Origin: Ranitomeya imitator
Lineage: Eukaryota
Assembly: GCF_032444005.1 (NCBI RefSeq)
Contig: NC_091283.1
Span: forward strand, 664,082,001 to 664,146,000
DNA: 64,000 bases
Direction of reading: 5' to 3'
Position numbers and translations under genes: made by a program. Positions 1-55,399 of this stretch are shown in pieces; the stretch's first letter is position 1, and every line of letters begins with the position of its first letter. Below the pieces are notes generated by a model that did no database searches, was not told where the DNA came from, and saw only the letters and a list, made by a program, of their open reading frames with translations.

Positions 1-239
1 GCAAGGTAGGCTTATTTTCTATCTTCAGGCTAGCTAGTTTCTCAGGCTGTGCCGAGTTGCATAGGGAGCGTTAGGCGCAATCCACGGCTGCCTCTAGTGT
101 GGTTGGGGAGGATTAGGGATTGCGGTCAGCAGAGTTCCCACGTCTCAGAGCTCATTCTATGTTTTTGGGTTATTGTCAGGTCACTGTATGTGCTCTGATC
201 TCTATGTCCATTGTGGTACTGAATTACCTTATCATAACA
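1..239 (+). repeat. 5' LTR (last 239 bp) of the chromovirus
   Basis: Direct repeat of 5012-5250, ending TATCATAACA. Confidence 0.96.
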
Positions 240-241
240 GT

Positions 242-250
242 ACTGGAGGC
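242..250 (+). promoter_or_regulatory. Putative self-priming primer-binding site ACTGGAGGC
   Basis: Lies 2 nt after the 5' LTR end and is the exact reverse complement of LTR sequence GCCTCCAGT at 4619-4627. Confidence 0.7.
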
Positions 251-3200
251 CAAAAGTACTAATGATTCTCAATAGAGGGAAAAAAGAAGTTCTGAGACCA
301 TTTTTTTTTCTCTGCACTGTGTTTTGCCTTTTTTTCGCCCTAGACATTTGGGTGGTTCAGGACACAGGTGTAGCGATGGACATTAAAGGTCTGTCTTCAT
401 GTGTGGATCAGCTCACAGCAAGAGTACAAAATATTCAAGACTTTGTGGTTCAGAATTCTATGTTAGAACCGAGAATTCCTATTCCTGATTTGTTTTTTCG
501 AGATAGAACTAAATTTCTGGGTTTCAAAAATAATTGTAAACTATTTCAGGCTTTGAAACCTCGCTCCTCTGGTGACCCAGTTCAACAAGTTAGGATCATT
601 ATTTCTTTTTTACGTGGCGACCCTCAGGACTGGGCATTTTCTCTTGCGTCAGGAGATCCTGCATTAAGTAATATCGATGCGTTTTTCCTGGCGCTCGGAT
701 TGCTGTACGATGAACCTAATTCAGTGGATCAGGCAGAGAAAAATTTGCTGGCTCTGTGTCAGGGTCAGGATGAGATAGAGGTATATTGTCAGAAATTTAG
801 AAAGTGGTCTGTACTCACTCAATGGAATGAAGGTGCGCTCGCAGCTATTTTCAGAAAGGGTCTCTCTGAAGCCCTTAAGGATGTCATGGTGGGATTTCCT
901 ATGCCTGCTGGTCTGAATGAGTCTATGTCTTTGGCCATTCAGATCGGTCGACGCTTGCGTGAGCGTAAATCTGTGCACCATTTGGCGGTATTACCTGAGC
1001 TTAAACCTGAGCCTATGCAGTGCGATAGGACTTTGACCAGAGTTGAACGGCAAGAACACAGACGTCTGAATGGGCTGTGTTTCTACTGTGGTGATTCCAC
1101 TCATGCTATCTCTGATTGTCCTAAGCGCACTAAGCGGTTCGCTAGGTCTGCCACCATTGGTACGGTACATTCAAAATTTCTTCTGTCCGTTACCTTGATC
1201 TGCTCTTTGTCATCGTATTCTGTCATGGCATTTGAGGATTCAGGCGCTGCCCTGAATTTGATGGACTTGGAGTATGCTAGGCGTTGTGGGTTTTTCTTGG
1301 AGCCCTTGCAGTGTCCTATTCCATTGAGAGGAATTGATGCTACGCCTTTGGCCAAGAATAAGCCTCAGTACTGGACCCAGCTGACCATGTGCATGGCTCC
1401 TGCACATCAGGAGGTTATTCGCTTTCTGGTGTTGCATAATCTGCATGATGTGGTCGTGTTGGGGTTGCCATGGCTACAAGTCCATAATCCAGTATTAGAT
1501 TGGAAATCCATGTCTGTGTCCAGCTGGGGTTGTCAGGGGGTACATGGTGATGTCCCATTTCTGACTATTTCGTCATCCACCCCTTCTGAGGTTCCAGAGT
1601 TCTTGTCTGATTACCGGGATGTATTTGATGAGCCCAAGTCCGATACCCTACCTCCGCATAGGGATTGTGATTGTGCTATCGATTTGATTCCTGGTAGTAA
1701 ATTCCCAAAAGGTCGACTGTTTAATTTATCTGTGCCTGAGCACGCCGCTATGCGGAGTTATGTGAAGGAGTCCTTGGAGAAGGGGCATATTCGCCCGTCA
1801 TCGTCGCCATTAGGAGCAGGGTTCTTTTTTGTAGCCAAGAAGGATGGTTCACTGAGACCTTGTATAGATTACCGCCTTCTAAATAAGATCACGGTTAAAT
1901 TTCAGTACCCCTTGCCGTTGTTATCTGATTTGTTTGCTCGGATTAAGGGGGCTAGTTGGTTCACCAAGATAGATCTTCGTGGTGCGTATAATCTTGTGCG
2001 TATTAAGCGAGGCGATGAATGGAAAACTGCATTTAATACGCCCGAGGGCCATTTTGAGTATCTAGTAATGCCATTCGGACTTGCCAATGCTCCATCAGTG
2101 TTTCAGTCCTTTATGCATGACATCTTCCGAGAGTACCTGGATAAATTCCTGATTGTGTACTTGGATGACATTTTGATCTTCTCGGATGATTGGGAGTCTC
2201 ATGTGAAGCAGGTCAGAACGGTGTTTCAGGTCCTGCGTGCTAATTCTTTGTTTGTGAAGGGATCAAAGTGTCTCTTTGGTGTGCAGAAGGTTTCATTTTT
2301 GGGGTTCATCTTTTCCCCTTCTACTATCGAGATGGACCCTGTTAAGGTCCAAGCCATCCATGATTGGACTCAGCCGACATCTTTGAAAAGTCTGCAAAAG
2401 TTCCTGGGCTTTGCTAATTTTTATCGTCGCTTCATCTGCAATTTTTCTAGTATTGCTAAACCATTGACTGATTTGACCAAGAAGGGTGCTGATGTGGTCA
2501 ATTGGTCTTCTGCTGCTGTGGAAGCTTTTCAAGAGTTGAAGCGTCGTTTTTCTTCTGCCCCTGTGTTGTGTCAACCAGATGTTTCGCTTCCGTTCCAGGT
2601 CGAGGTTGATGCTTCTGAGATTGGAGCTGGGGCTGTTTTGTCGCAGAGAAGTTCTGATTGCTCGGTGATGAAACCATGCGCCTTGTTTTCCAGGAAGTTT
2701 TCGCCTGCTGAGCGAAATTATGATGTGGGCAATCGAGAGTTGCTGGCCATGAAGTGGGCATTCGAGGAGTGGCGTCATTGGCTTGAAGGAGCTAAGCATC
2801 GCGTGGTGGTCTTGACTGATCATAAGAACTTGACTTATCTCGAGTCTGCCAAGCGGTTGAATCCTAGACAGGCTCGTTGGTAGCTGTTTTTTGCCCGTTT
2901 TGACTTTGTGATTTCGTACCTTCCGGGCTCTAAAAATGTGAAGGCGAATGCTCTGTCTAGGAGTTTTGTGCCCGACTCTCCGGGTTTATCTGAGCCAGCG
3001 GGTATCCTCAAAGAGGGAGTAATTGTGTCTGCCATCTCCCCTGATTTGCGGCGGGTGCTGCAAAAATTTCAGGCTAATAAACCTGATCGTTGCCCAGCGG
3101 AGAAACTGTTTGTCCCTGATAGGTGGACGAATAAAGTTATCTCTGAGGTTCATTGTTCGGTGTTGGCTGGTCATCCTGGAATCTTTGGTACCAGAGAGTT

Positions 3201-4423
3201 AGTGGCTAGATCCTTTTGGTGGCCACCTCTGTCGCGGGATGTGCGTACTTTTGTGCAGTCCTGTGGGATTTGTGCTCGGGCTAAGCCCTGCTGTTCTCGT
3301 GCCAGTGGGTTGCTTTTGCCCTTGCCGGTCCCGAAGAGGCCTTGGACACATATCTCTATGGATTTTATTTCAGATCTTCCCGTCTCTCAAAAGATGTCAG
3401 TCATTTGGGTGGTCTGTGATCGCTTCTCTAAGATGGTCCATTTGGTACCCTTGTCTAAATTACCTTCCTCCTCTGATTTGGTGCCATTGTTCTTCCAGCA
3501 TGTGGTTCGTTTACATGGCATTCCAGAGAATATCGTTTCTGACAGAGGTTCCCAGTTTGTTTCGAGGTTTTGGCGAGCCTTTTGTGGTAGGATGGGCATT
3601 GACTTGTCTTTTTCCTCGGCTTTCCATCCTCAGACTAATGGCCAGACCGAACGAACCAATCAGACCTTGGAAACATATCTGAGATGCTTTGTTTCTGCTG
3701 ATCAGGATGACTGGGTGTCCTTTTTGCCTTTGGCTGAGTTCGCCCTTAATAATCGGGCCAGCTCGGCTACCTTGGTTTCGCCATTTTTCTGCAACTCTGG
3801 GTTCCATCCTCGTTTCTCTTCAGGGCAGGTTGAGTCTTCGGACTGTCCTGGTGTGGATACTGTGGTGGACAGGTTGCAGCAGATTTGGACTCATGTAGTG
3901 GACAATTTGACCTTGTCCCAGGAGAAGGCTCAACGTTTCGCTAATCGCAGACGCTGTGTGGGTCCCCGACTTCGTGTTGGGGATTTGGTTTGGTTATCTT
4001 CTTGTCATATTCCTATGAAGGTTTCCTCTCCTAGGTTTAAACCTCGTTTCATTGGTCCGTATAGGATTTCTGAGGTTCTTAATCCTGTGTCTTTTCGTCT
4101 GACCCTTCCAGATTCTTTTTCCATACATAACGTATTCCATAGGTCATTGTTGCGGAGATACGTGGCACCTATGGTTCCATCTGTTGATCCTCCTGCCCCG
4201 GTTTTAGTGGAGGGGGAGTTGGAGTATATTGTGGAGAAGATTTTGGATTCTCGTGTTTCAAGACGGAAACTCCAGTATCTGGTTAAGTGGAAGGGTTATG
4301 CTCAGGAAGATAATTCCTGGGTCTTTGCCTCTGATGTCCATGCTCCCGATCTTGTTCGTGCCTTTCATATGGCTCATCCTGGTCGTCCTGGGGGCTCTGG
4401 TGAGGGTTCGGTGACCCCTCCTC

Positions 4424-4433
4424 AAGGGGGGGG
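4424..4433 (+). promoter_or_regulatory. Polypurine tract
   Basis: AAGGGGGGGG, 3 nt before the TGT start of the 3' LTR. Confidence 0.85.
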
Positions 4434-4436
4434 TAC

Positions 4437-5250
4437 TGTTGTGAATTCTGTGGCAGAGCTCCCTCCTGTGGTCACAAGTGGTACTTCGGCTGATTCTCTC
4501 TGTGAGCTTCCGTTGGTGGAGGAAAGTGGTACTGCGGCTTCTGAGTTTCCTTCCTCAGGTGATGTGGTGAAGTCGTTAGGTGCTGCTCTATTTAACTCCA
4601 CCTAGTGCTTTGATCCTTGCCTCCAGTCTATGTTCTAGTATTGGACCTGTTTCCTCCTGGATCGTTCCTGTGGTCTGCTGCTCTGCATAGCTAAGTTCCG
4701 CTTTGCTATTTTGTTTGCTGTGTTTTTTCTGTCCAGCTTGTCTATTTGTTTTTTCCTGCTTGCTGAAAGCTCTGGGACGCAGAGGGTGTACCTCCGTGTC
4801 GTTAGTTCGGTACGGAGGGTCTTTTTGCCCCCTTTGCGTGGTTTTTGTAGGGTTTTGTGTTGACTGCAAAGTTACCTTTCCTATCCTCGCTCTGTTCAGA
4901 AAGTCGGGCCTCACTTTGCTAAATCTATTTCATCTCTACGTTTGTCTTTTCATCTTAACTCACAGTCATTATATGTGGGGGCTGCCTTTTCCTTTGGGGT
5001 ATTTCTCTGAGGCAAGGTAGGCTTATTTTCTATCTTCAGGCTAGCTAGTTTCTCAGGCTGTGCCGAGTTGCATAGGGAGCGTTAGGCGCAATCCACGGCT
5101 GCCTCTAGTGTGGTTGGGGAGGATTAGGGATTGCGGTCAGCAGAGTTCCCACGTCTCAGAGCTCGTTCTATGTTTTTGGGTTATTGTCAGGTCACTGTAT
5201 GTGCTCTGATCTCTATGTCCATTGTGGTACTGAATTACCTTATCATAACA
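4437..5250 (+). repeat. 3' LTR of the chromovirus (814 bp)
   Basis: TGTTGTGAATTC...TATCATAACA; boundaries confirmed by the related solo LTR at 8314-9116. Confidence 0.95.
4589..4595 (+). promoter_or_regulatory. TATA-like box of the LTR (TATTTAA)
   Basis: 30 nt upstream of the PBS-complementary 9-mer. Confidence 0.55.
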
Positions 5251-6272
5251 TATGACACTCTGCCGCTAAAGGGAGTGATGGTACGTCTGATGGCACTAAA
5301 GGAGTTCTGACCAGGTATCACAAACACACATGACACTTCACACTCCGGCCACAAGGGGGAGTGGTTCTATCTAGTAGGCCACTCTTCACACTCTGGTAAA
5401 ACTGGGGGTTGGACAGGAAGTTAGACAGAAAGAGCCCGGGAGAGTTCGAGAGAGAACCTGTCAGGGGTGGGATTCTGACAGCGGTCTAGAAAGAGAACAG
5501 ATCGTTACAGAGCCGCGCCTGCACTACCTTGCGGCGGTATTCTAAGAAAGGACACGAAGCGAAGTTGATTGTGGAGAAGTGAGAAGCGGGATCACAGTGT
5601 AAAGGAGATAGAGCCAGAAGAAGTCGTGCCGTGAGACTGAGGCAACATCCTTCTGAGGCGCATAGCGGTGGCTGGAGCACCGAGAAAGTAAGAGACTTTA
5701 CGCATTACTTCAACATGGCAGGACAGTTAATTATAGGTTGGCTGTCTCACCTAAATCACCTAAGCAGACAAGGGAGGCAACTGTGGGAGAGGGGCATCTC
5801 TAGGGTCCCAGAATAACTCCAGGCCTACCCGTCATACGGGTGCGTCCTAACCATATCATCTGGGGGACGAAGAGAGAGAGAAAGAACAACGAACACAGAC
5901 ACAACAGTTGTGAGGACTATCCCATGGTGCTCAGCAGGGAAGGACTACAACACACAGGCGCTAGTGGGTAGGCACTGATTTCCACCTGCAAAGGAAACTC
6001 CGGATGTGTCTTCGGACCGGCCGGTCTCAGCCAGCCCTGTTAGCAGTGCTCTGGATTGCGGATCCCAAAGCCTTCAGTAAAGAGGTAAAGAGACTGCAAC
6101 CCTGTGTCCTTGTTATTCATCGCGCCTCGCACCACGCATTATACCATCACCTTTCATTGGGCGCCCCTTAGCAGGGTCACGGACCGGTTCTAGCCACCGT
6201 GATGACCCCAATACAGAGACTGAGGGGCCCGGTATCGAGAACTCGTGGCCCTGTGTCTGGGGGCGCTCCACA
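5251..6272 (+). mobile_element. LTR of a second gypsy-like family, interrupted near its 5' end by the chromovirus
   Basis: Ends GGGGGCGCTCCA(CA). Its first 120 bp resemble the LTR at 38336 (CAGGT(T)ATCAC...CACA...GGCC...AGGGGGAG). Non-coding. Confidence 0.65.
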
Positions 6273-6433
6273 TTGACTTAACAGAGATTCAATTCCAATG
6301 CAGCAATCACATTTACTTTCTGGTAAAGTCATGCAGATATTAGAATGGTGCAGTGATTTTTGAGTCCTAACTTCGCCTTACATGCACAGTCTTTATCACA
6401 CAGCTATCCGAGCTGGGGTTGTGGTTTCTCTTT

Positions 6434-6610
6434 CAAGAGTGGACGCAAATGGCTGCACATCCAGTTGGAAGAATGTCTCAAGTGGGGTACCACAGGGTTC
6501 TGTCGTGGGCCCTGTATTGTTCAACATCTTTATCAATGATTTAGATGAAGGAATTGAGGGTACACTGATTAAATTTGCTGATGACACAAAGCTAGGAGAG
6601 ATAGCTAATA
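6434..6610 (+). mobile_element. CR1 LINE fragment 1 (RT core)
   Basis: Translates [46 protein letters not shown]; cut at TA 6609-6610 by the Tc1 element. Confidence 0.93.
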
Positions 6611-6986
6611 CAACCCCTGGCAAAAATTATGTAATCACCGGCCTTGGAGGATGTTCATTCAGTTTTTTAATTCTGTAGATAAAAAGCAGATCACAGACAT
6701 GGCACAAACCTAAAGTAATTTCAAATGGCAACTTTCTGGCTTTAAGAAACAGTAAAAGAAATCGAGAACAAAAAATGTGGTAAGTAATGGTTACTTTTTG
6801 TAACCAAGCGTAGGGTAAAAATTATGGAGTCACTCAATTATGAGGGAAAAAATTATGGAATCACCCTGTAAATTTTCATTCCCAAAACTAACACATGCAT
6901 CAAATTAGATCTGCTCGTTAGTCTGCATCTAAAAAGGAGTGATCACAACTTGGAGAGCTGTTGCACCAAGTGGACTGTCATGAATC

Positions 6987-8007
6987 ATGGCTGCAACACG
7001 AGAGATGTCAATTGAAACAAAGGAGAGAATATCAAACTCTTAAAAGAAGGTAAATCATCACACATTGTTGCAAAAGATGTTGGTTGTTCACAGTCAGCTG
7101 TGGCTAAAATCTGGACCAAATACGAACAACATGGAAGGTTGTTAAAGGCAAACATACTGGTAGACCAAGGAAGACATCATAGCGTCAAGACTGGAAACTT
7201 AAAGCAAAATGTCTTCAAAACATGAAATGCACAACAAAACAAATGAGGAACGAATGGGAGGAAACTAAAGTCAACGTCTGTGAGAGAACTGTAAGAAACC
7301 GCCTAAAGGAAATAGGATTTTCATACAGAAAAGCTATAAGAAAGCCATCATTAACACCTAAACAGAAAAAAGCAAGGTTACAATGGGCTAAGGAAAAGCA
7401 ATCGTGGACTGTGGATGACTGGATGAAAGTCATATTCAGAGATGAATCACGAATCTGCATTGGGCAAGGTGATGATGCTGGAACTTTTGTTTGGTGCTGT
7501 TGCAATGAGATTTATAAAGATGACTGCCTGAAGAGAACATGCAAATTTCCACAGTCATTGATGATATGAGGCTGCATGTTAGGTAAAGGCATTGGGGAGA
7601 TAGCTGTCATTACATCTTCAATAAATGCACAAGTTTATGTTGATATTTTGGACACTTTTCTTATCCCATCAATTGAAAGGATGTTTATGGATGATGAAAT
7701 CATTTTTCAAGATGATAATGCATTCTGCCATAGAACAAAAACTGTGAAAACATTCCTTGAATAAAGACACATATGGTCAATGTAGTGGCCTGCAAATAGT
7801 CCGGATCTCAATCCAATTGAAAATCTTTGGTGGAAGTTGAAGAAAATGGTCCATGACAAGGCTCCAACCTGCAAAGCTGATCTGGCAACAGCAATCAGAA
7901 AAAGTTGGAGCCAGATTAATGAAGAGTCCTGTTTGACACTCATTAAGTCCATGCCTCAGAGACTGCAAGCTGTTATAAAAGCCAGAGGTGGTGTAACAAA
8001 ATACTAG
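6987..8007 (+). pseudogene. Tc1 DD34E transposase, decayed
   Basis: VIFRDES, FQDDNA and SPDLNPIENLW motifs, with 34 codons between the second D and E. Contains several stops and frameshifts. Confidence 0.92.
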
Positions 8008-8313
8008 TGATGTGTTGGAGTGTTTTGTTTGTTTTTCATGATTCCATAATTTTTTCCCTCATAACTGAGTGCCTCCATAAATTTTGCCCTATGCTTGGTT
8101 ACAAAAAGTAACCATTATTGACTACCACATTTTTTGTTCTTGATTTCTTTTACTGTTTCTTAAAGACAGAAAGTTGCCATTTGAAGTGACTTTAGTTTTG
8201 TGCCATGTCTGTGATCTGTTTTTTTTTTCTACAAAATTAAACAACTGAATGTGAGGGGTCGAGTTCCCGCCTCTGCACAGGGGGAATCTCAGGCCATCTC
8301 CGCTGTGGTCTCC

Positions 8314-9116
8314 TGTTATGATAGGCAATTCAGTATCACAATGGACATGGAGGTCAGAGCACATACAGTGATCTGACAATAACCCAAAATAATAGAACGA
8401 GCTCTGAGACGTGGGAACTCTGCAGACCGCAATCCCTGATCCTCTCCAAACACAACTAGAGGCAGCCGTGGATTGCGCCTAACGCTCCCTATGCAACTCG
8501 GCACAGCCTGAGAAACTAACTAGCCTGAAGATAGAAAAAATAAGCCTACCTTGCCTCAGAGAAATACCCCAAAGGAAAAGGCAGCCCCCCACATATAATG
8601 ACTGTGAGTAAGATGAAAAGACAAACGTAGGGATGAAATAGATTCAGCAAAGTGAGGCCCGATATTCTAGACAGAACGAAGATAGGAAAGATAACTTTGC
8701 GGTCTACACAAAACCCTAAAGAAAACCACGCAAAGGGGCAAAAAGACCCTCCGTACCGAACTAACGGCATGGAGGTACACCCTTTGCGTCCCAGAGCTTC
8801 CAGCAAAACAAATAGACAAGCTGGACAGAAAAAATAGCAACAAATAGCAAAGAAGCACTTAGCTATGCAGAGCAGCAGGCCACAGGAATGATCCAGAGAA
8901 ACACAAGTCCAACACTGGAACATTGACAGGAAGCATGAATCAAAGCATTAGGTGGGGTTAAGTAGAGAAGCACCTAACGACCTCACCAGATCACCTGAGG
9001 GAGGAAACTCAGAAGCAGCAGTACCAGTTTCCTCCACAAACGGAAGCTCCCAGAGAGAATCAGCCGAAGTACCACTTGTGACCACAGGAGGGAGCTCTGC
9101 CACAGAATTCACAACA
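8314..9116 (-). mobile_element. Solo LTR of the chromovirus family (diverged subfamily)
   Basis: Reverse complement is homologous to 4437-5250 end to end; flanked by GTCTCC at 8308-8313 and 9117-9122. Confidence 0.93.
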
Positions 9117-10000
9117 GTCTCCCATTCTTCTCCTGCCGCACTGGAGCCTGCTCAGCAGAGACATCATTCCCAGCGTCTTGCTCAGTCTCACTCTGTGCAT
9201 AGGATTACTGCTGTTTTTCCAGCTTCTGCCATTGAAGCCAGTGTTGGGCAGCGGCGAGCAGACGCTTTTGGGACTAAGTCCTGCTTTTCCCCTTCTGAGC
9301 ATGCCCAGGCTAAGATCTCTCATTGGAGATCGAGGTTCACATGCTTAGATACTGCAGCAAGACCCATTGGTTCTCCAAGAAGGTCCTGAAGTTCCTCAGG
9401 CTCTGTGGCAGTCTATCATTGGTCCTTCTAGGAAGGTCCTGTACGTGGTGCAGCTATATAAGGTTCGCATGGCCACACGGCCATGCGCTAGTATCAAATC
9501 TAAGTTATGTGCTTTGCGCCAGTGTGGTTATGTGAAAACGTATTCAGGGATCCGGCTGAAATAAGCCCCTAGAATACCGGCACCTCCGGTGAGGAGATTG
9601 TATGAGTGTGTTCAGGGACCCAGATGAAATAAGCCCCTAGAATACCGGCTTCTCCGGCGAGGAGATTGCGTGTTGCATAACCACTGACTGCTATCAGCTT
9701 GGCAGTAAGCTTGTGCTCCTGTGAGGCTAACAGGGCACAGTGCTTTCCTTTCACGGCTACTCTGCGAGGTAACAGAGCTAGTCTATACCGCCAAACAGTG
9801 CCACCATTCACTAGCAGCAGGTTTTCCTGCACGGTGGACCCTGAGCTGCGAATGCACCATCTACTATATAATTGTCTAAGGGTCACTTCCGTCTGTCTGT
9901 CCTTCTGTCACGGTTATTCATTCGCTGATTGGTCTCGCCAGCTGCCTGTCATGGCTGCCGAGACCAATCAGCGACGGGCACAGTCCGGAAGAAAATGGCC

Positions 10001-23835: not shown

Positions 23836-24798
23836 TGTTAGGACTGGCGGAACGCACCAAGAGAGATGATATAGATGCGTTCGCAGTCCGGGGTCCACCG
23901 TGCAGGTGAAACCTGCTGCTAGGAAATGACAGACAATATGGCGGTATTCAAAAGTATACACGCGTGGGTTAAACCTCACCCAGCGTGAAGAAAGCGATCC
24001 TGTTGCGTCACAGGACCGCGGTACCGCACATAGAGCGCGAGCAAGTGGTCAGCGAACTAAACCCCAACAGGGATTGTAGTCCGATTAGACCCTTGCTGGC
24101 ACTACACCGCTACTGGGTGTGAAAGGAATTATATAATAAAGGCACCGAAGTGCGAACTGTGCCGTGCTGGCAGGCACCACTAAGCACCCAGACGTGGGTC
24201 AGGAAGCACACACTGGCGCGTGGCACCGCACTAGCGGTCACAGCAGTAGACGCTGACACGTGTGTGACACGTTGAGTGATAAGTCGGGCGCTAGATAGCA
24301 GCCATACTCCATACGCGAACAATCATACAATAGGGTAGGGGTATTTAAAGAACGACTTGCACTCACAACAAACACACGTATTAAATTGTACACTAGCGCA
24401 TGGCCGTGCGGTCATGCGCAGTTTATATAGTTGCAGGACAGGAAGCGGCCACAGAAACTTTGCCCTTCCAAGACCTGCCAAGAGGACCAATAGAATGCGC
24501 TGCAGAGTCTGAGCACATGACCCTCGATCTCCAACGGGAGATCTTGCCCTGGGCATGCTCAGTGTGCGCAGACAAGGACTTAGTCCCAGAGAAGTCCACT
24601 CGCTGCTGACCAGTATAGGCTTTACAGGCAGAAGCTGGAGAAGCAGCAGTAACTCTTCTCACAGAGTCAGACTGAGTGAGACGCTGGGATCGACGTCCCT
24701 GCTGAGCAGGCTCCACTGCGGCTGGAGGAGCATGGGAGACCGCAGCGGAGACGGATCGAGATTCCCCCTGTGCAGCAGAGGAAACTCGACTCCTAACA
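23836..24798 (-). mobile_element. Solo LTR, family B (963 bp)
   Basis: TGTTAGGA...TCCTAACA; perfect 5-bp TSD ACTAC (23831-23835, 24799-24803). Strand is inferred from TATATAAA at 24429-24422. Confidence 0.92.
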
Positions 24799-27572: not shown

Positions 27573-28476
27573 ACCGGGAAATGGAAATAAATACATTTTT
27601 TAAAATTTTATTAATTTTCCCTAAGTAAGGGGTGATGAAGGGGGGTTTGATTTGCTTTTATAGCATTTTTTGGCTGATTTTTATGATTGGCAGCCGCCAC
27701 ACACTAAAAAGACGCTTTTTATTGCAACAAATAGTTTTTGCATCACCACATTTTGAGAGCTATAATTTATCCATATTTTGGCCCACAGAGTCATGTGGGT
27801 CTTGTTTTTTGCGGGACGATTTGACGTTTTTATTGGTACCATTTTCGGGCACATGACATTTTTTGATCGCTTTTTATTCCGATTTTTGGGAGGCAGAATG
27901 AACTAAAACCAGCAATTCCTGAATTTCTTTTGGGGGGGGGGTATTTATACCGTTCCACGTGTGGTAAAACTGATAAAGCACCTTTATTCTTCAGGTCAGT
28001 ATGATTACAGCGATACCTCATTTATATTTTTTTTATGTTTTGACGCTTTTACACAATAAAAACTATGTTATATAAAAAATAATTGTTTTTGCATCGCTTT
28101 ATTCTGAGAGCTATAACTGTTTTATTTTTCTGCTGATGATGCTGTATGGCAGCTTTTATTTGCGGGACAAGATGACGTTTTCAGCGGTACCATGTTTATT
28201 TATATCTGTCTTTTTGATCGCGTGTTATTCCACTTTTTGTTCGCCGGTATGATAATAAAGCGTTGTTTTTTGCCTCTTTTTTTTTTTTTTTGCAGTGTTC
28301 ACTGAAGGGGTTAACTAGTGGGATAGTTTTATAGAGCGGGTCGTTACGGATGCGGCGATACCAAATATGTGTACTTTTATTGTTTTTTTTTTATTTACAT
28401 AAATAAATGGATTTATTGGGAAATTATTATTTTTTCTTTATTTGAGTTTTTTTTTATACATTCTATTTTTTTTTAA

Positions 28477-29348
28477 AGGGAACCTGTCACCCCGTTTTTT
28501 CAGATTGAGATATAAATACTGTTAAATAGGGCCTGCGCTGTGCGTTACTATAGTGTATGTAGTGTACCCTGATTCCCCACCTATGCTGAGAAATACATTA
28601 CCAAAGTCGCCGTTTTCGCCTGTCAATCAGGCTGGTCAGGTCAGGTGGGCGTGGTGACATCGCTCTTTTGTTCCCCAGCTTTCCGTTGGTGGCGTAGTGG
28701 TGTGCGCATGTCCAAGTTCCGAATTCCCTGCGCGCACGTGAAGAAACAGCACGCGATCTGCGCTGTTATCCCTTTCATCGGTGGGGGCGGCCATCTTCCT
28801 GGGGCCACGTGTGCGCAGATGGAGTGCTCTGCTGCACGGGGCTTCAGGAAAATGGCCGCGGGATGCCGCGCATGCACAGAAGAGATCGCGGCGGCCATTT
28901 TCAGTTTGCATCTCGGCTTTGGGAAAATGGCCGCCGCGATCTCTTCTGCGCACGCGCGGCATCCCGTGGCCATTTTCCTGAAGCCCCGTGCAGCAGAGCA
29001 CTCCATCTGTGCACGCGCGGCCCCAGGAAGATGGCCGCCCCCACCGATGAAAGGGATAACAGCGCAGATCGCGCGCTGTTTCTTCACGTGCGCGCAGGGA
29101 ATTCGGAACTTGGACATGCGCACACCACTACGCCACCAACGGAAAGCTGGGGAAGAAAAGAGCAATGTCACCACGCCCACCTGACCTGACCAGCCTGATT
29201 GACAGGCGAAAACGGCGACTTTGGTAATGTATTTCTCAGCATAGGTGGGGAATCAGGGTACACTACATACACTATAGTAACGCACAGCGCAGGCCCTATT
29301 TAACAGTATTTATATCTCAATCTGAAAAAACGGGGTGACAGGTTCCCT
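28477..29348. mobile_element. Palindromic T2/Kolobok-type MITE (425-bp arms, 22-nt spacer)
   Basis: TTAA on both sides; AGGGAACCTGTCA termini; arms 28477-28901 and 28924-29348 differ at roughly nine positions by eye. Confidence 0.93.
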
Positions 29349-30574
29349 TTAACTTTCTAACATTGTCCCAGGGTGGGACATCACTATATTAGATAAGATC
29401 ACTGATCTGACACTTTGCATAGCACTGTGTCAGATCAGCGATCTGATAGGCAGTGCAGGAGGCTTTCCGGCGCCTGCTCAGAGCAAGCCACCTCACTTCA
29501 GGACCCGGAAGGAGCCCCGAGGCCATTTTGGATCCGGGGACTCCTTCCAGAACACCGGAACAACGCGATCGCATCGCGTTGCTTCGGTGGGAGAGCGCAG
29601 GGAGCCCCCATCCCTGCGCGATGCCCCTCTATGTCGCTGTCACTACTGACAGCGGCATCAGAGGGGTTAAATGCCCATGATCGGCGCTAGCACCAATCGT
29701 GGGCATTGCTATGGGGTGTCAGCTGTCATATACAGCTGACACCCGCACGCGATCGCCGCGGCGCTCAGCGTGAGGCTGCGCGATCGTGCTGCCGTACTAG
29801 TACTGCGGTTGGCGGGAACTCAGTTCCCGCAGAGCAGTACTAGCATGGCGCATGTCGGGAAGGGGTTAATAGCGCATGAGGAATAGTGTTATATTGCAAT
29901 AAAGCATTGTTAGAAAAAAAAAGAACCAGGAAAATCCTGTTCACTGTGTGTGTAGCTGGAAGACATTTTACTTTCACTTTCAAGCTGAGAGACAAGATGC
30001 TAAGATCCTAAGCTATAAGAAATACCAGTTGTGAGCTGTGTTATCTTTGTTCCTGATTTCCTGAAAATGTATTCATTGTTGAACGGTTGGACAGTACAGA
30101 GATTAATCTGCTGCCTTCAATATTCTATAGTGCAGACCTGGGCAAACTACGGCGCTCGGGCCACATTTGGCCCTTTGGCTATACTTGTCCAGAAGAGGAC
30201 AACAAAAGAGCTGAAAGCAGTAGCTTGCAGGTTACATGCTGCATCCACCCTCCCCACATTCATCCCACATCTCAATTTCACCACTGTCTGCACCCTCAGG
30301 TTGCAGATATCGGTGAATATAATTGTGGAGGAGGGAGCCGTTAGACCCATCCCTATCTTGCACCATTTTGCCTGCATGACTGAGTGTGTTACCACAGCAA
30401 GTGCATTGAAGTCATTAGATCGCGCCTGCTGTGGAGCCTAAGTGTGCAGAGCAAAGACCGGAGCCAAGCAGCGCACCTCGGGAACAGGAGTGAGGTGAGT
30501 ATTTTGTGTTTGGGTTTCTTTTTGGCATTCACTTGAACGGCGGATATGAGTGGCCATTATTATGTGTTTAGGGA

Positions 30575-51630: not shown

Positions 51631-54600
51631 CTAGGTGTCAGCCGGGCAAGGTGGGGCAAAAGATTTCGAAATCCAGTTGTGGTTCATTTTAATGAAGGTT
51701 AGATCATCTACATTTTGGGTAGCCAGACGAGTCCTTTTTTCTGTTAGTATTGAACCTGCAGCACTGAATACTCTTTCTGATAGGACACTAGCTGCCGGGC
51801 AAGCAAGCTCCTGCAATGCATATTCTGCCAATTCTGGCCAGGTGTCTAATTTTGATGCCCAGTAATCAAATGGGAATGACGGTTGAGGGAGAACATCGAT
51901 AAGGGATGAAAAATAGTTTGTAACCATACTGGACAAATGTTGTCTCCTGTCACTTTGAATTGATGCTGCAGTACCTGTCCTGTCTGCGGTCATAGCAAAA
52001 TCACTCCACAACCTGGTCAGAAAACCCCTCTGGCCAACGCCACTTCTGATTTCTGCCCCTCTAACTCCTCTGGTCTGCTGGCCCCTGCAGCTCGTGTGAG
52101 AACGATCACGGGCGCTGTGTGCAGGGAATGCCAGAAGCAAACGGTCAACAAGAGTTGATTGTTTGGTTGCTAATATTAGTTCCAAGTTCTCATGTGGCAT
52201 TATATTTTGCAATTTGCCTTTATAGCGAGGATCAAGGAGGCAGGCCAACCAGTAATCGTCATCATTCATCATTTTAGTTATGCGTGTGTCCCTTTTGAGG
52301 ATACGTAAGGCATAATCCGCCATGTGGGCCAAAGTTCCAGTTCTCAAATCTGCGGTTGTGCTTGGTTGAGGGGCAGTTTCAGGCAAATCCACGTCACTTG
52401 TGTCCCTCAAAAAACCAGAACCCGGCCTTGCCGCGCCACCAATTTCCAGTGGCCCCGGAAAAGCTTCCTCATTAAAAATATAATCATCCCCATCATCCTC
52501 CTCGTCCTCCTCCTCCTCTTCGCCCGCTACCTCGTCCTGTACACTGCCCTGGCCAGACAATGGCTGACTGTCATCAAGGCTTTCCTCTTCCTCAGCTGCA
52601 GACGCCTGATCCTTTATGTGCGTCAAACTTTGCATCAGCAGACGCATTAGGGGGATGCTCATGCTTATTATGGCGTTGTCTGCACTAACCAGCCGTGTGC
52701 ATTCCTCAAAACACTGAAGGACTTGACACATGTCTTGAATCTTCGACCACTGCACACCTGACAACTCCATGTCCGCCATCCTACTGCCTGCCCGTGTATG
52801 TGTATCCTCCCACAAAAACATAACAGCCCGCCTCTGTTCACACAGTCTCTGAAGCATGTGCAGTGTTGAGTTCCACCTTGTTGCAACGTCTATGATTAGG
52901 CGATGCTGGGGAAGGTTCAAAGAACGCTGATAGGTCTGCATACGGCTGGAGTGTACGGGCGAACGGCGGATATGTGAGCAAAGTCCACGCACTTTGAGGA
53001 GCAGGTCGGATAACCCCGGATAACTTTTCAGGAAGCACTGCACCACCAGGTTTAAGGTGTGAGCCAGGCAAGGAATGTGTTTCAGTTGGGAAAGGGAGAT
53101 GGCAGCCATGAAATTCCTTCCGTTATCACTCACTACCTTGCCTGCCTCAAGATCTACAGTGCCCAGCCACGACTGCGTTTCTTTCTGCAAGAACTCGGAC
53201 AGAACTTCCGCGGTGTGTCTGTTGTCGCCCAAACACTTCATAGCCAATACAGCCTGCTGACGTTTGCCAGTAGCTGCCCCATAATGGGAGACCTGGTGTG
53301 CAACAGTGGCAGCTGCGGATGGAGTGGTTGTGCGACTGCGGTCTGTGGACGAGCTCTCGCTTCTGCAGGAGGACGAAGAGGAGGAGGAGGGGGTGCGAAC
53401 GGCTACAGCCAATTGTTTCCTAGACCGTGGGCTAGGCAGAACTGTCCCAAACTTGCTGTCCCCTGTGGACCCTGCATCCACCACATTTAACCAGTGTGCC
53501 GTGATGGACACGTAACGTCCCTGGCCATGCCTACTGGTCCATGCATCTGTTGTCAGGTGCACCTTTGTGCTCACAGATTGCCTGAGTGCATGGACGATGC
53601 GCTCTTTAACATGCTGGTGGAGGGCTGGGATGGCTTTTCTGGAAAAAAAGTGTCGACTGGGTAGCTCGTAGCGTGGTACAGCGTAGTCCATCAGGGCTTT
53701 GAAAGCTTCGCTTTCAACTAACCGGTAGGGCATCATCTCTAACGAGATTAGTCTAGCTATGTGTGCGTTCAAACCCTGTGTACGCGGATGCGAGGCTAAG
53801 TACTTCCTTTTTCTAACCATAGTCTCATGTAGGGTGAGCTGGACTGGAGAGCTGGAGATCGTGGAACTAGCGGGGGTGCCGGTGGACATGGCAGACTGAG
53901 AGACGGTGGGAGATGGTATTGTTGCCACCGGTGCCCTAGATGCAGTGTTTCCTACTACGAAACTGGTGATTCCCTGACCCTGACGGCTTTGGCCTGGCAA
54001 AGAAACCTGCACAGATACTGCAGGTGGTGCGGAAAATGGTGGCCCTACACTGCCGGAAGGGATGTTGCGTTGCTGACTAGCTTCATTGGCCGAGGGTGCT
54101 ACAACCTTAAGGGACGTTTGGTAGTTAGTCCAGGCTTGCAAATGCATGGTGGTTAAATGTCTATGCATGCAACTTGTATTGAGACTTTTCAGATTCTGTC
54201 CTCTGCTTAAGGTAGTTGAACATTTTTGACAGATGACTTTGCGCTGATCAATTGGATGTTGTTTAAAAAAATGCCAGACTGCACTCTTTCTAGCATCGGA
54301 TACCTTTTCAGGCATTGCAGACTGAGCTTTAACCGGATGGCCACGCTGTCCTCCAACAGGTTTTAGCTTTGCCACGCGTTTTGGGCAAGATACGGGCCCG
54401 GCAGATGGAACCTGTTGCGATGTTGATGCCTGCTGCGGCCCCTCCTCCTCCGCTTCAGAACTGCTGCCGCCTGCACCCTGTTCCCCCAATGGCTGCCAAT
54501 CGGGGTCAAGAACTGGGTCATCTATTACCTCTTCTTGTAGCTCGTGTGCAACTTCGTCTGTGTCACCGTGGCGGTCGGTGGTATAGCGTTCGTGATGGGG

Positions 54601-55200
54601 CAACATAGTCTCATCAGGGTCTGATTCTTGATCAGCACCCTGCGATGGCAATGTTGTGGTCTGAGTCAAAGGACCAGGATAGTAGTCTGGCTGTGGCTGT
54701 GCATCAGTGCACTCCATGTCAGATTCAACTTGTAATGGGCATGGACTGTTAACTGCTTCACTTTCTAAGCCAGGGACGGTATGTGTAAAGAGCTCCATGG
54801 AGTAACCCGTTGTGTCGCCTGCTGCATTCTTCTCTGTTGTTGTTTTTGCTGAAGAGGACAAGGAAGCGACTTGTCCCTGACCGTGAACATCCACTAACGA
54901 CGCGCTGCTTTGACATTTACCAGTTTCACGAGAGGAGGCAAAAGAGCTAGAGGCTGAGTCAGCAAGATAAGCCAAAACTTGCTCTTGCTGCTCCGGCTTT
55001 AAAAGCGGTTTTCCTACTCCCAGAAAAGGGAGCGTTCGAGGCCTTGTGTAGCCAGACGACGAACCTGGCTCCACAGCTCCAGACTTAGGTGCAATATTTT
55101 TTTTCCCACGACCAGCTGATGCTCCACCACTACCACTACCCTCATTACCAGCTGACAATGAACGCCCCCGGCCACGACCTCTTCCACCAGACTTCCTCAT
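51631..55200 (-). CDS. hAT (Ac/ZBED-like) transposase with BED zinc finger, 1189 aa, uninterrupted
   Basis: First ATG at 55200 (the track starts at a GTG). Motifs: BED finger SAVWHFF...C..C...H....H, TTDAW, VSDNG, CLAH, TRWNST, and the hATC dimerisation domain with SERVFS. Confidence 0.96.
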   Translation of the reverse strand: MRKSGGRGRGRGRSLSAGNEGSGSGGASAGRGKKNIAPKSGAVEPGSSSGYTRPRTLPFLGVGKPLLKPEQQEQVLAYLADSASSSFASSRETGKCQSSASLVDVHGQGQVASLSSSAKTTTEKNAAGDTTGYSMELFTHTVPGLESEAVNSPCPLQVESDMECTDAQPQPDYYPGPLTQTTTLPSQGADQESDPDETMLPHHERYTTDRHGDTDEVAHELQEEVIDDPVLDPDWQPLGEQGAGGSSSEAEEEGPQQASTSQQVPSAGPVSCPKRVAKLKPVGGQRGHPVKAQSAMPEKVSDARKSAVWHFFKQHPIDQRKVICQKCSTTLSRGQNLKSLNTSCMHRHLTTMHLQAWTNYQTSLKVVAPSANEASQQRNIPSGSVGPPFSAPPAVSVQVSLPGQSRQGQGITSFVVGNTASRAPVATIPSPTVSQSAMSTGTPASSTISSSPVQLTLHETMVRKRKYLASHPRTQGLNAHIARLISLEMMPYRLVESEAFKALMDYAVPRYELPSRHFFSRKAIPALHQHVKERIVHALRQSVSTKVHLTTDAWTSRHGQGRYVSITAHWLNVVDAGSTGDSKFGTVLPSPRSRKQLAVAVRTPSSSSSSSCRSESSSTDRSRTTTPSAAATVAHQVSHYGAATGKRQQAVLAMKCLGDNRHTAEVLSEFLQKETQSWLGTVDLEAGKVVSDNGRNFMAAISLSQLKHIPCLAHTLNLVVQCFLKSYPGLSDLLLKVRGLCSHIRRSPVHSSRMQTYQRSLNLPQHRLIIDVATRWNSTLHMLQRLCEQRRAVMFLWEDTHTRAGSRMADMELSGVQWSKIQDMCQVLQCFEECTRLVSADNAIISMSIPLMRLLMQSLTHIKDQASAAEEEESLDDSQPLSGQGSVQDEVAGEEEEEDEEDDGDDYIFNEEAFPGPLEIGGAARPGSGFLRDTSDVDLPETAPQPSTTADLRTGTLAHMADYALRILKRDTRITKMMNDDDYWLACLLDPRYKGKLQNIMPHENLELILATKQSTLVDRLLLAFPAHSARDRSHTSCRGQQTRGVRGAEIRSGVGQRGFLTRLWSDFAMTADRTGTAASIQSDRRQHLSSMVTNYFSSLIDVLPQPSFPFDYWASKLDTWPELAEYALQELACPAASVLSERVFSAAGSILTEKRTRLATQNVDDLTFIKMNHNWISKSFAPPCPADT

Positions 55201-55399
55201 TGTTTTAAAAACGTTAACAAACGAACGGTATTTGTTGCTGTCACACAACTTACACGGTGAGCTATAACTTCAGTATGATTTAGCTACCCCTTTACAGGTG
55301 GGTGAGCCCACAACGAAAATCAGCCACAATGTTACACACTCTGTTGGTGTTGGCAACAAATGAGATGCCACACACGCAGGACTGTCACTGAAGCGCAAA

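Follow-up and report, generated by a model that had tools for sequence, protein, structure and literature searches.

The window analysed here, a stretch of 64,000 nucleotides (nt) of the Ranitomeya imitator genome (contig NC_091283.1, positions 664,082,001 to 664,146,000, forward strand), opens with a long terminal repeat (LTR) retrotransposon, which occupies positions 1-5250 and whose left end is cut off by the window border. This text concerns the primer binding site (PBS) of the element, which is an exact complement of nine nucleotides of its own LTR, and the self-priming of reverse transcription that this complement suggests.

Structure and classification of the element

The following features were assigned to the element:

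1-239, plus strand: remnant of the 5' LTR, its last 239 nt (U5 side), ending in ..ATAACA; 238/239 nt identical to positions 576-814 of the 3' LTR
240-241, plus strand: 2-nt spacer GT, mirrored by AC (4435-4436) between the polypurine tract and the 3' LTR
242-250, plus strand: PBS, ACTGGAGGC; copies of the family vary here (244 T>A, 248 G>A)
238-2880, plus strand: open frame with ATGs at 262 and 376, coding for gag with a CCHC motif, a protease region, reverse transcriptase (RT) and RNase H
2881-2883, plus strand: in-frame stop between RNase H and integrase, at which the pol of the window copy is broken
2884-4605, plus strand: integrase (H2C2, rve), SH3 domain of the Tf2-1 kind and chromodomain
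4424-4433, plus strand: polypurine tract
4437-5250, plus strand: 3' LTR, 814 nt, TG...CA
4589-4595, plus strand: TATA-like box TATTTAA
4619-4627, plus strand: predicted self-primer GCCTCCAGT at LTR position 183-191, expected to be the initial 9 nt of the transcript

Pfam searches assigned gag, RT and RNase H within 238-2880; the domains found were RVT_1, RT_RNaseH, Integrase_H2C2, rve, SH3_Tf2-1 and Chromo, and the protease region gave no match at E 0.001. The gag-pol of the window element is contained in one frame, without a frameshift, and its top match in the PDB was Ty3 Gag-Pol. The order protease, RT, RNase H, integrase, followed by a C-terminal chromodomain and flanked by two LTRs, is that of a Ty3/gypsy chromovirus.

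The closest proteins were gene models of R. imitator, with 73-98% identity. A quick IQ-TREE phylogeny of the RT-RNase H region (52 rows, which did not include sushi-ichi, Amn-san or Tf1; midpoint root) placed the element inside a 28-row vertebrate clade (SH-aLRT 98), on a long branch of its own (0.58). Members of this clade came from Xenopus, Ascaphus, Rhinophrynus, Oryzias and Cyprinus and from fish-like loci; plant-like and fungal-like loci were placed outside it. The remnant of the 5' LTR differs from the 3' LTR at a single position, a sign of recent insertion. By its sequence the element is a vertebrate Tf1/sushi-type chromovirus, recently inserted; a preliminary description of this DNA had called it a young vertebrate chromovirus.

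The pol frame crosses the polypurine tract and enters the 3' LTR by 169 nt (4437-4605); its stop lies past the TATA-like box and ahead of the predicted primer. The Ranitomeya protein P0006 has a comparable LTR-encoded stretch. A search of the sense strand for AATAAA and nine common variants found none in the 3' LTR (4437-5250) or in a solo LTR described below (8314-9116).

Complementarity between the PBS and the LTR

The PBS starts 3 nt past the end of the 5' LTR (239), after the GT spacer, and all nine of its nucleotides (ACTGGAGGC, 242-250) are the reverse complement of GCCTCCAGT (4619-4627), located 30 nt downstream of TATTTAA (4589). The match could not be extended on either side and was the longest PBS/LTR complement, the runner-up being 6 nt; both 9-mers occur only once each in the window. 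The primer sequence was read from the 3' LTR, its 5' LTR copy falling outside the window, in which only the last 239 nt of that LTR are present. On recheck all coordinates of the preliminary description were correct, and its account of the exact complement, of the distance from TATTTAA and of the missing 5' copy was borne out.

Among shuffles that preserved dinucleotide composition, 125 of 5000 (2.5%) had a complement of at least 9 nt, anywhere in the LTR, to a site starting 0-5 nt past the LTR end; only in 1 of 5000 did the complement fall 24-36 nt downstream of the TATA position. The primer/PBS duplex was estimated at -16.3 kcal/mol; ten 10-mers from related elements span -13.1 to -16.8 kcal/mol. 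Two-strand cofolding did not form the primer duplex, the crossed geometry being beyond what cofolding can represent. An additive estimate gave -37.4 plus -17.3 against -42.7 kcal/mol, a hint only, as it ignores loop penalties. Among 120 homologous proteins searched for translated PBS or primer sequence, none covered either site.

The preliminary description had stated that no TGG, the start typical of a tRNA site, lies within 1-3 nt of the LTR. This holds, although the LTR end is followed by a TGG at a distance of 4 nt (244-246). The available part of PMC6317226 gives a search window for tRNA sites of 0-5 nt after the LTR, within which this TGG falls, and a minimum of 10 bp for self-primers. 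The 3' end of a host tRNA, or a tRNA half, might prime at this TGG or at an internal tRNA stretch, the LTR complement being incidental. We regard this as highly improbable. The widespread variant 244 T>A (see below) abolishes this sole nearby TGG; the PBSs of related families differ, each following its own LTR; and the 2-nt spacer is mirrored on the side of the polypurine tract, which places the priming start at 242 and not at 244. The window itself supplied no host tRNA to set against the PBS: ARAGORN found no tRNA genes in it, and Rfam gave no match over 1-9600.

Predicted sister PBS and PBS variants in the family

A second LTR of the same kind is present in the window:

8314-9116, minus strand: solo LTR of a sister subfamily, 803 nt, 91% identical to the 3' LTR (729/799 columns)

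It is flanked by a 6-nt target duplication (8308-8313 and 9117-9122); a further copy of the host repeat, at 24720-24760, has the empty site and confirms the duplication. At its primer position (8926-8934) the solo LTR reads GCTTCCTGT, so that the implied sister PBS is ACAGGAAGC, with the changes 244 T>A and 248 G>A. The solo primer pairs with this implied PBS at -15.5 kcal/mol, compared with -10.6 kcal/mol for the window PBS.

Variants were sought in the contigs of 4 of 24 listed runs (four studies) over positions 130-400 at 80% likeness; one of them, X1, is possibly the window's own sample. Between 233 and 251, the only substitutions among the 40 rows listed (24 weaker rows lay outside the list) were 244 T>A and 248 G>A. 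Both were present in all four runs compared: 244 T>A in 69 contigs of X1, 13 of X4, 3 of X8 and 7 of X18, and 248 G>A in 65, 11, 3 and 4 contigs, respectively. Drawing both predicted changes from the 27 possible in the 9-mer has a probability of about 1 in 351 by chance, mutation bias being ignored. The two letters that the preliminary description had predicted from the solo LTR were thus both found, unphased.

Other PBS forms were seen in single contigs. One divergent X18 contig carried small indels within the PBS, and X4, X8 and X18 each contributed one contig with a more distant LTR end, in which the spacer and the outer PBS letters are the same and the core is different. Three further matches to ACAGGAAGC in the window (18958, 20485 and 24438) were rejected as PBSs after BLAST, as they lie outside LTR or internal copies of the element family; the match at 24438 falls within an unrelated solo LTR.

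Cognate complements in related families

A metagenome scan gave 462 matches, of which the best 80, corresponding to 79 loci, were kept; the 36 loci with a gag match were examined. The LTR end and 2-nt spacer were located by pattern in 23 loci and by eye in L018, L019 and L034, and the LTR ends of two fungal-like and two plant-like loci were taken from the LTR repeats. L050 was dropped, as it had no clear end. The junction rule made no use of complementarity. Eight of 28 non-plant loci were excluded for an LTR shorter than 330 nt, a cut-off chosen after the primer distances had been seen. A scan of IMG/VR yielded no related loci.

A perfect complement of 10-11 nt to the PBS was found within the locus's own LTR in 17 of 20 testable related loci; these 17 include near-duplicates and represent 10 distinct PBS sequences. 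A TATA-like box was located 29-34 nt upstream of the primer in 13 of the 17, most distances being 29-32 nt. Non-cognate pairs of PBS and LTR matched at 9 nt or more in only 2 of 176 combinations of a 14-family panel, drawn mostly from matching loci. Across the ten 10-mer families, which were selected as matches, the primer varies at nine of its ten positions, with Watson-Crick pairing throughout. The covariation of LTR primer and PBS, which the preliminary description had proposed as a check among family members, was therefore seen across families. L056 and L061, two chromoviruses of the plant type, carry a TGG site and lack a complement, their longest matches being 7 and 0 nt.

These data also bear on the idea that the 9-nt match arose by chance, or is a relic of a self-priming ancestor that has gone out of use. 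The 2.5% of shuffles with a match anywhere in the LTR, and the stop in the pol of the window copy, would be compatible with it. The position relative to the TATA-like box argues against it, as do the two predicted PBS variants and the same layout in the relatives; moreover, the near-identical LTRs indicate that the primer/PBS layout was in recent use. We find a chance or relic origin barely conceivable.

Some further observations were made on these loci. In the fungal-like L076 (2250-2760), the mismatch of the LTR pair to the PBS is absent in the close relative L074. The U5 end of a fish-like family has a stretch that by eye is tRNA-like or like a short interspersed element (L003, 1-160; L004, 150-230); ARAGORN called no tRNA in it. 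In the fish-like loci L002, L011, L015, L024, L026, L040 and L047 a U5 motif pairs with the region of the gag start codon (some 12 bp, interrupted by a 3-nt bulge, with changes that look compensatory).

RNA structure around the PBS

Three further features on the RNA were considered:

90-98, also 5101-5109, plus strand: second, imperfect complement of the PBS in U5 (LTR position 665)
142-152, plus strand: candidate PBS-flanking helix, 5' arm, pairing with 288-298
288-298, plus strand: candidate PBS-flanking helix, 3' arm, pairing with 142-152

The U5 site at position 665, about 150 nt from the PBS, could be the partner of the PBS instead of or besides the 5' end of the transcript, either as a primer after cleavage or as a block to priming. 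Through G-U pairs it binds the PBS at -16.4 kcal/mol, close to the -17.6 kcal/mol of position 183. The site is identical in the solo LTR, however, and pairs at only -3.9 kcal/mol with the implied sister PBS, which it thus does not follow. Position 183 changes in step with the PBS and position 665 does not, which identifies position 183 as the co-changing partner and makes either role of the U5 site very unlikely.

Tf1 requires two duplexes besides the primer duplex, forming a three-duplex pretzel, as described in the available part of bioRxiv 2022.12.06.519325. The equivalent U5/leader (downstream) duplex of the window element, helix 142-152/288-298, formed in the free fold as well as in the PBS-open one, and 2 of 200 shuffles were equally good. 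In 6 of 14 related rows no more than 6 of 200 shuffles matched the downstream duplex; the LTR-end duplex reached this level in no row. A stretch of U5 (155-181), chosen by eye as one continuous partner for the sequences on either side of the PBS, received no support from the LTR-end duplex test. Folding programs were unable to draw the crossed pretzel structure. The models back one helix flanking the window PBS; the three-duplex fold as a whole is not established.

Proposed priming mechanism

Transcription would start 30 nt downstream of the TATA-like box, at LTR position 183, and the 9-nt 5' end of the transcript would fold onto the PBS, priming minus-strand DNA without a tRNA. By analogy with Tf1, cleavage of the RNA by the element's RNase H behind the ninth base would leave a 3'-OH, which RT would extend, beginning with the GT spacer and U5. 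The U5/leader helix probably helps to keep the PBS open. The complement and the co-variation were observed; the transcript start, the duplex formation, the cleavage and the priming are inferred from Tf1. We consider this course of events very probable. The suggestion of self-priming in the preliminary description is supported, at the level of sequence comparison, by the placement in the vertebrate clade, the two predicted PBS variants and the cognate complements in relatives.

Several observations weigh against self-priming from position 183, in addition to the nearby TGG and the energy of the U5 site. The duplex of 9 bp is shorter than the matches of all 17 relatives and one base pair below the self-primer rule of PMC6317226. 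Three of the 20 testable relatives miss: L001, with a longest complement of 8 nt; L025, with no complement and a U5 that disagrees with its downstream LTR; and L076, with one PBS mismatch in both LTRs. The variants at 244 and 248 are unphased with each other and with the LTR primer, and the full 9-mer ACAGGAAGC was not observed as such among the contigs, its letters being seen separately. Their depth shares are unequal (27 and 39% in X1, 75 and 27% in X18), which suggests single-change PBS types besides. The LTR-end duplex of the Tf1 pretzel was no better than chance in the window element (144 of 200 shuffles equal), and the fold of 135-305 was unremarkable (z -1.39), its free form hiding part of the PBS.

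A more specific proposal for the frog lineage, in which a 9-bp primer is still co-changing with the PBS in young subfamilies and the competing U5 site acts as a switch in the RNA that selects either translation or reverse transcription, seems unlikely.

The frog family offers a natural vertebrate test of self-priming, as its young copies are numerous and it has two or more types of PBS. Phased long reads together with mapping of 5' ends could confirm the co-change of primer and PBS in this family without engineering.

Other repeats in the window

The element seems to be nested in another LTR-like repeat on the minus strand (5251-6211), followed by a decayed Tc1-like transposon with inverted ends (6605-8230). 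A second LTR family is represented by a copy at 8250-9520, interrupted by the solo LTR described above, and by an intact solo copy at about 23836-24798; the solo LTR of this second family has a 5-nt target duplication. A near-perfect inverted repeat of 430 bp with a 20-nt spacer occupies 28473-29352. On the minus strand, 51631-55269 holds an intact-looking open reading frame (ORF) of 1212 amino acids that by eye resembles a hAT/BED-finger transposase, with tandem arrays on either side (49.4-51.2 kb and 55.4-59.3 kb).

Comparison with known systems

Self-priming is an already known mechanism, and the window element adds another likely case to the described Tf1/sushi kind. The passages available from bioRxiv 2022.12.06.519325, PMC6317226 and PMC4600332 call it a common feature of Tf1/sushi elements, vertebrates included; there, self-priming of vertebrate elements was deduced from sequence and the experiments were done on yeast Tf1. 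According to the parts of the sources at hand, Amn-san chromoviruses are the most abundant LTR elements of frogs (PMC4131045) and Gypsy elements make up about 1 Gb of the Oophaga pumilio genome (PMC6278860); the available text of the latter contains no 'priming' or 'primer binding' passage. No paper on priming in the family of the window element was found in a search that left most subscription papers and the entries of Repbase and GyDB uncovered, so that absence from print is not established.

With the vertebrate Tf1/sushi elements sushi-ichi and Amn-san, compared by their descriptions, the window element shares a CCHC Gag, the protease-RT-RNase H-integrase-chromodomain order, TG...CA LTRs and a PBS whose complement in the LTR lies close to the predicted start of the transcript. 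It differs from vertebrate Tf1/sushi elements in a longer leader and in an LTR without AATAAA, a signal that the Sushi LTR model includes in the available part of PMC3601003. Its duplex is 9 bp long, compared with 10-11 bp in the relatives examined, with a stability within the range of their 10-mers. Its gag and pol lie in one frame, whereas 15 of 19 related loci have a -1 shift, three a single frame and one a +1 shift; eight of nine Ranitomeya proteins align ungapped across the gag-pol junction.

In Tf1 the 11-nt primer and the RNase H cleavage have been demonstrated experimentally, whereas in the window element a 9-nt primer and its cleavage are predicted. Tf1 needs the three-duplex pretzel, and the window element has support for one flanking helix. 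A single ORF is shared with Tf1 and Tf2. As far as the accessible parts of bioRxiv 2022.12.06.519325 and PMC4600332 describe them, Tf1 and Tf2 of Schizosaccharomyces pombe and Tj1 of S. japonicus also share a self-primer formed by the RNA 5' end on a PBS right after the 5' LTR. The Gag of these fission-yeast elements lacks the CCHC motif in the same bioRxiv source, unlike that of the window element.

The plant chromoviruses of the Tcn1 clade, in the section of PMC6317226 that describes them, resemble the window element in the absence of a tRNA PBS and in a self-priming predicted from an LTR complement. Their hosts are moss and club-moss, and the window element misses their 10-bp minimum by one base (PMC6317226). 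A 10-bp detection rule thus overlooks likely self-primers such as that of the 9-bp frog element.

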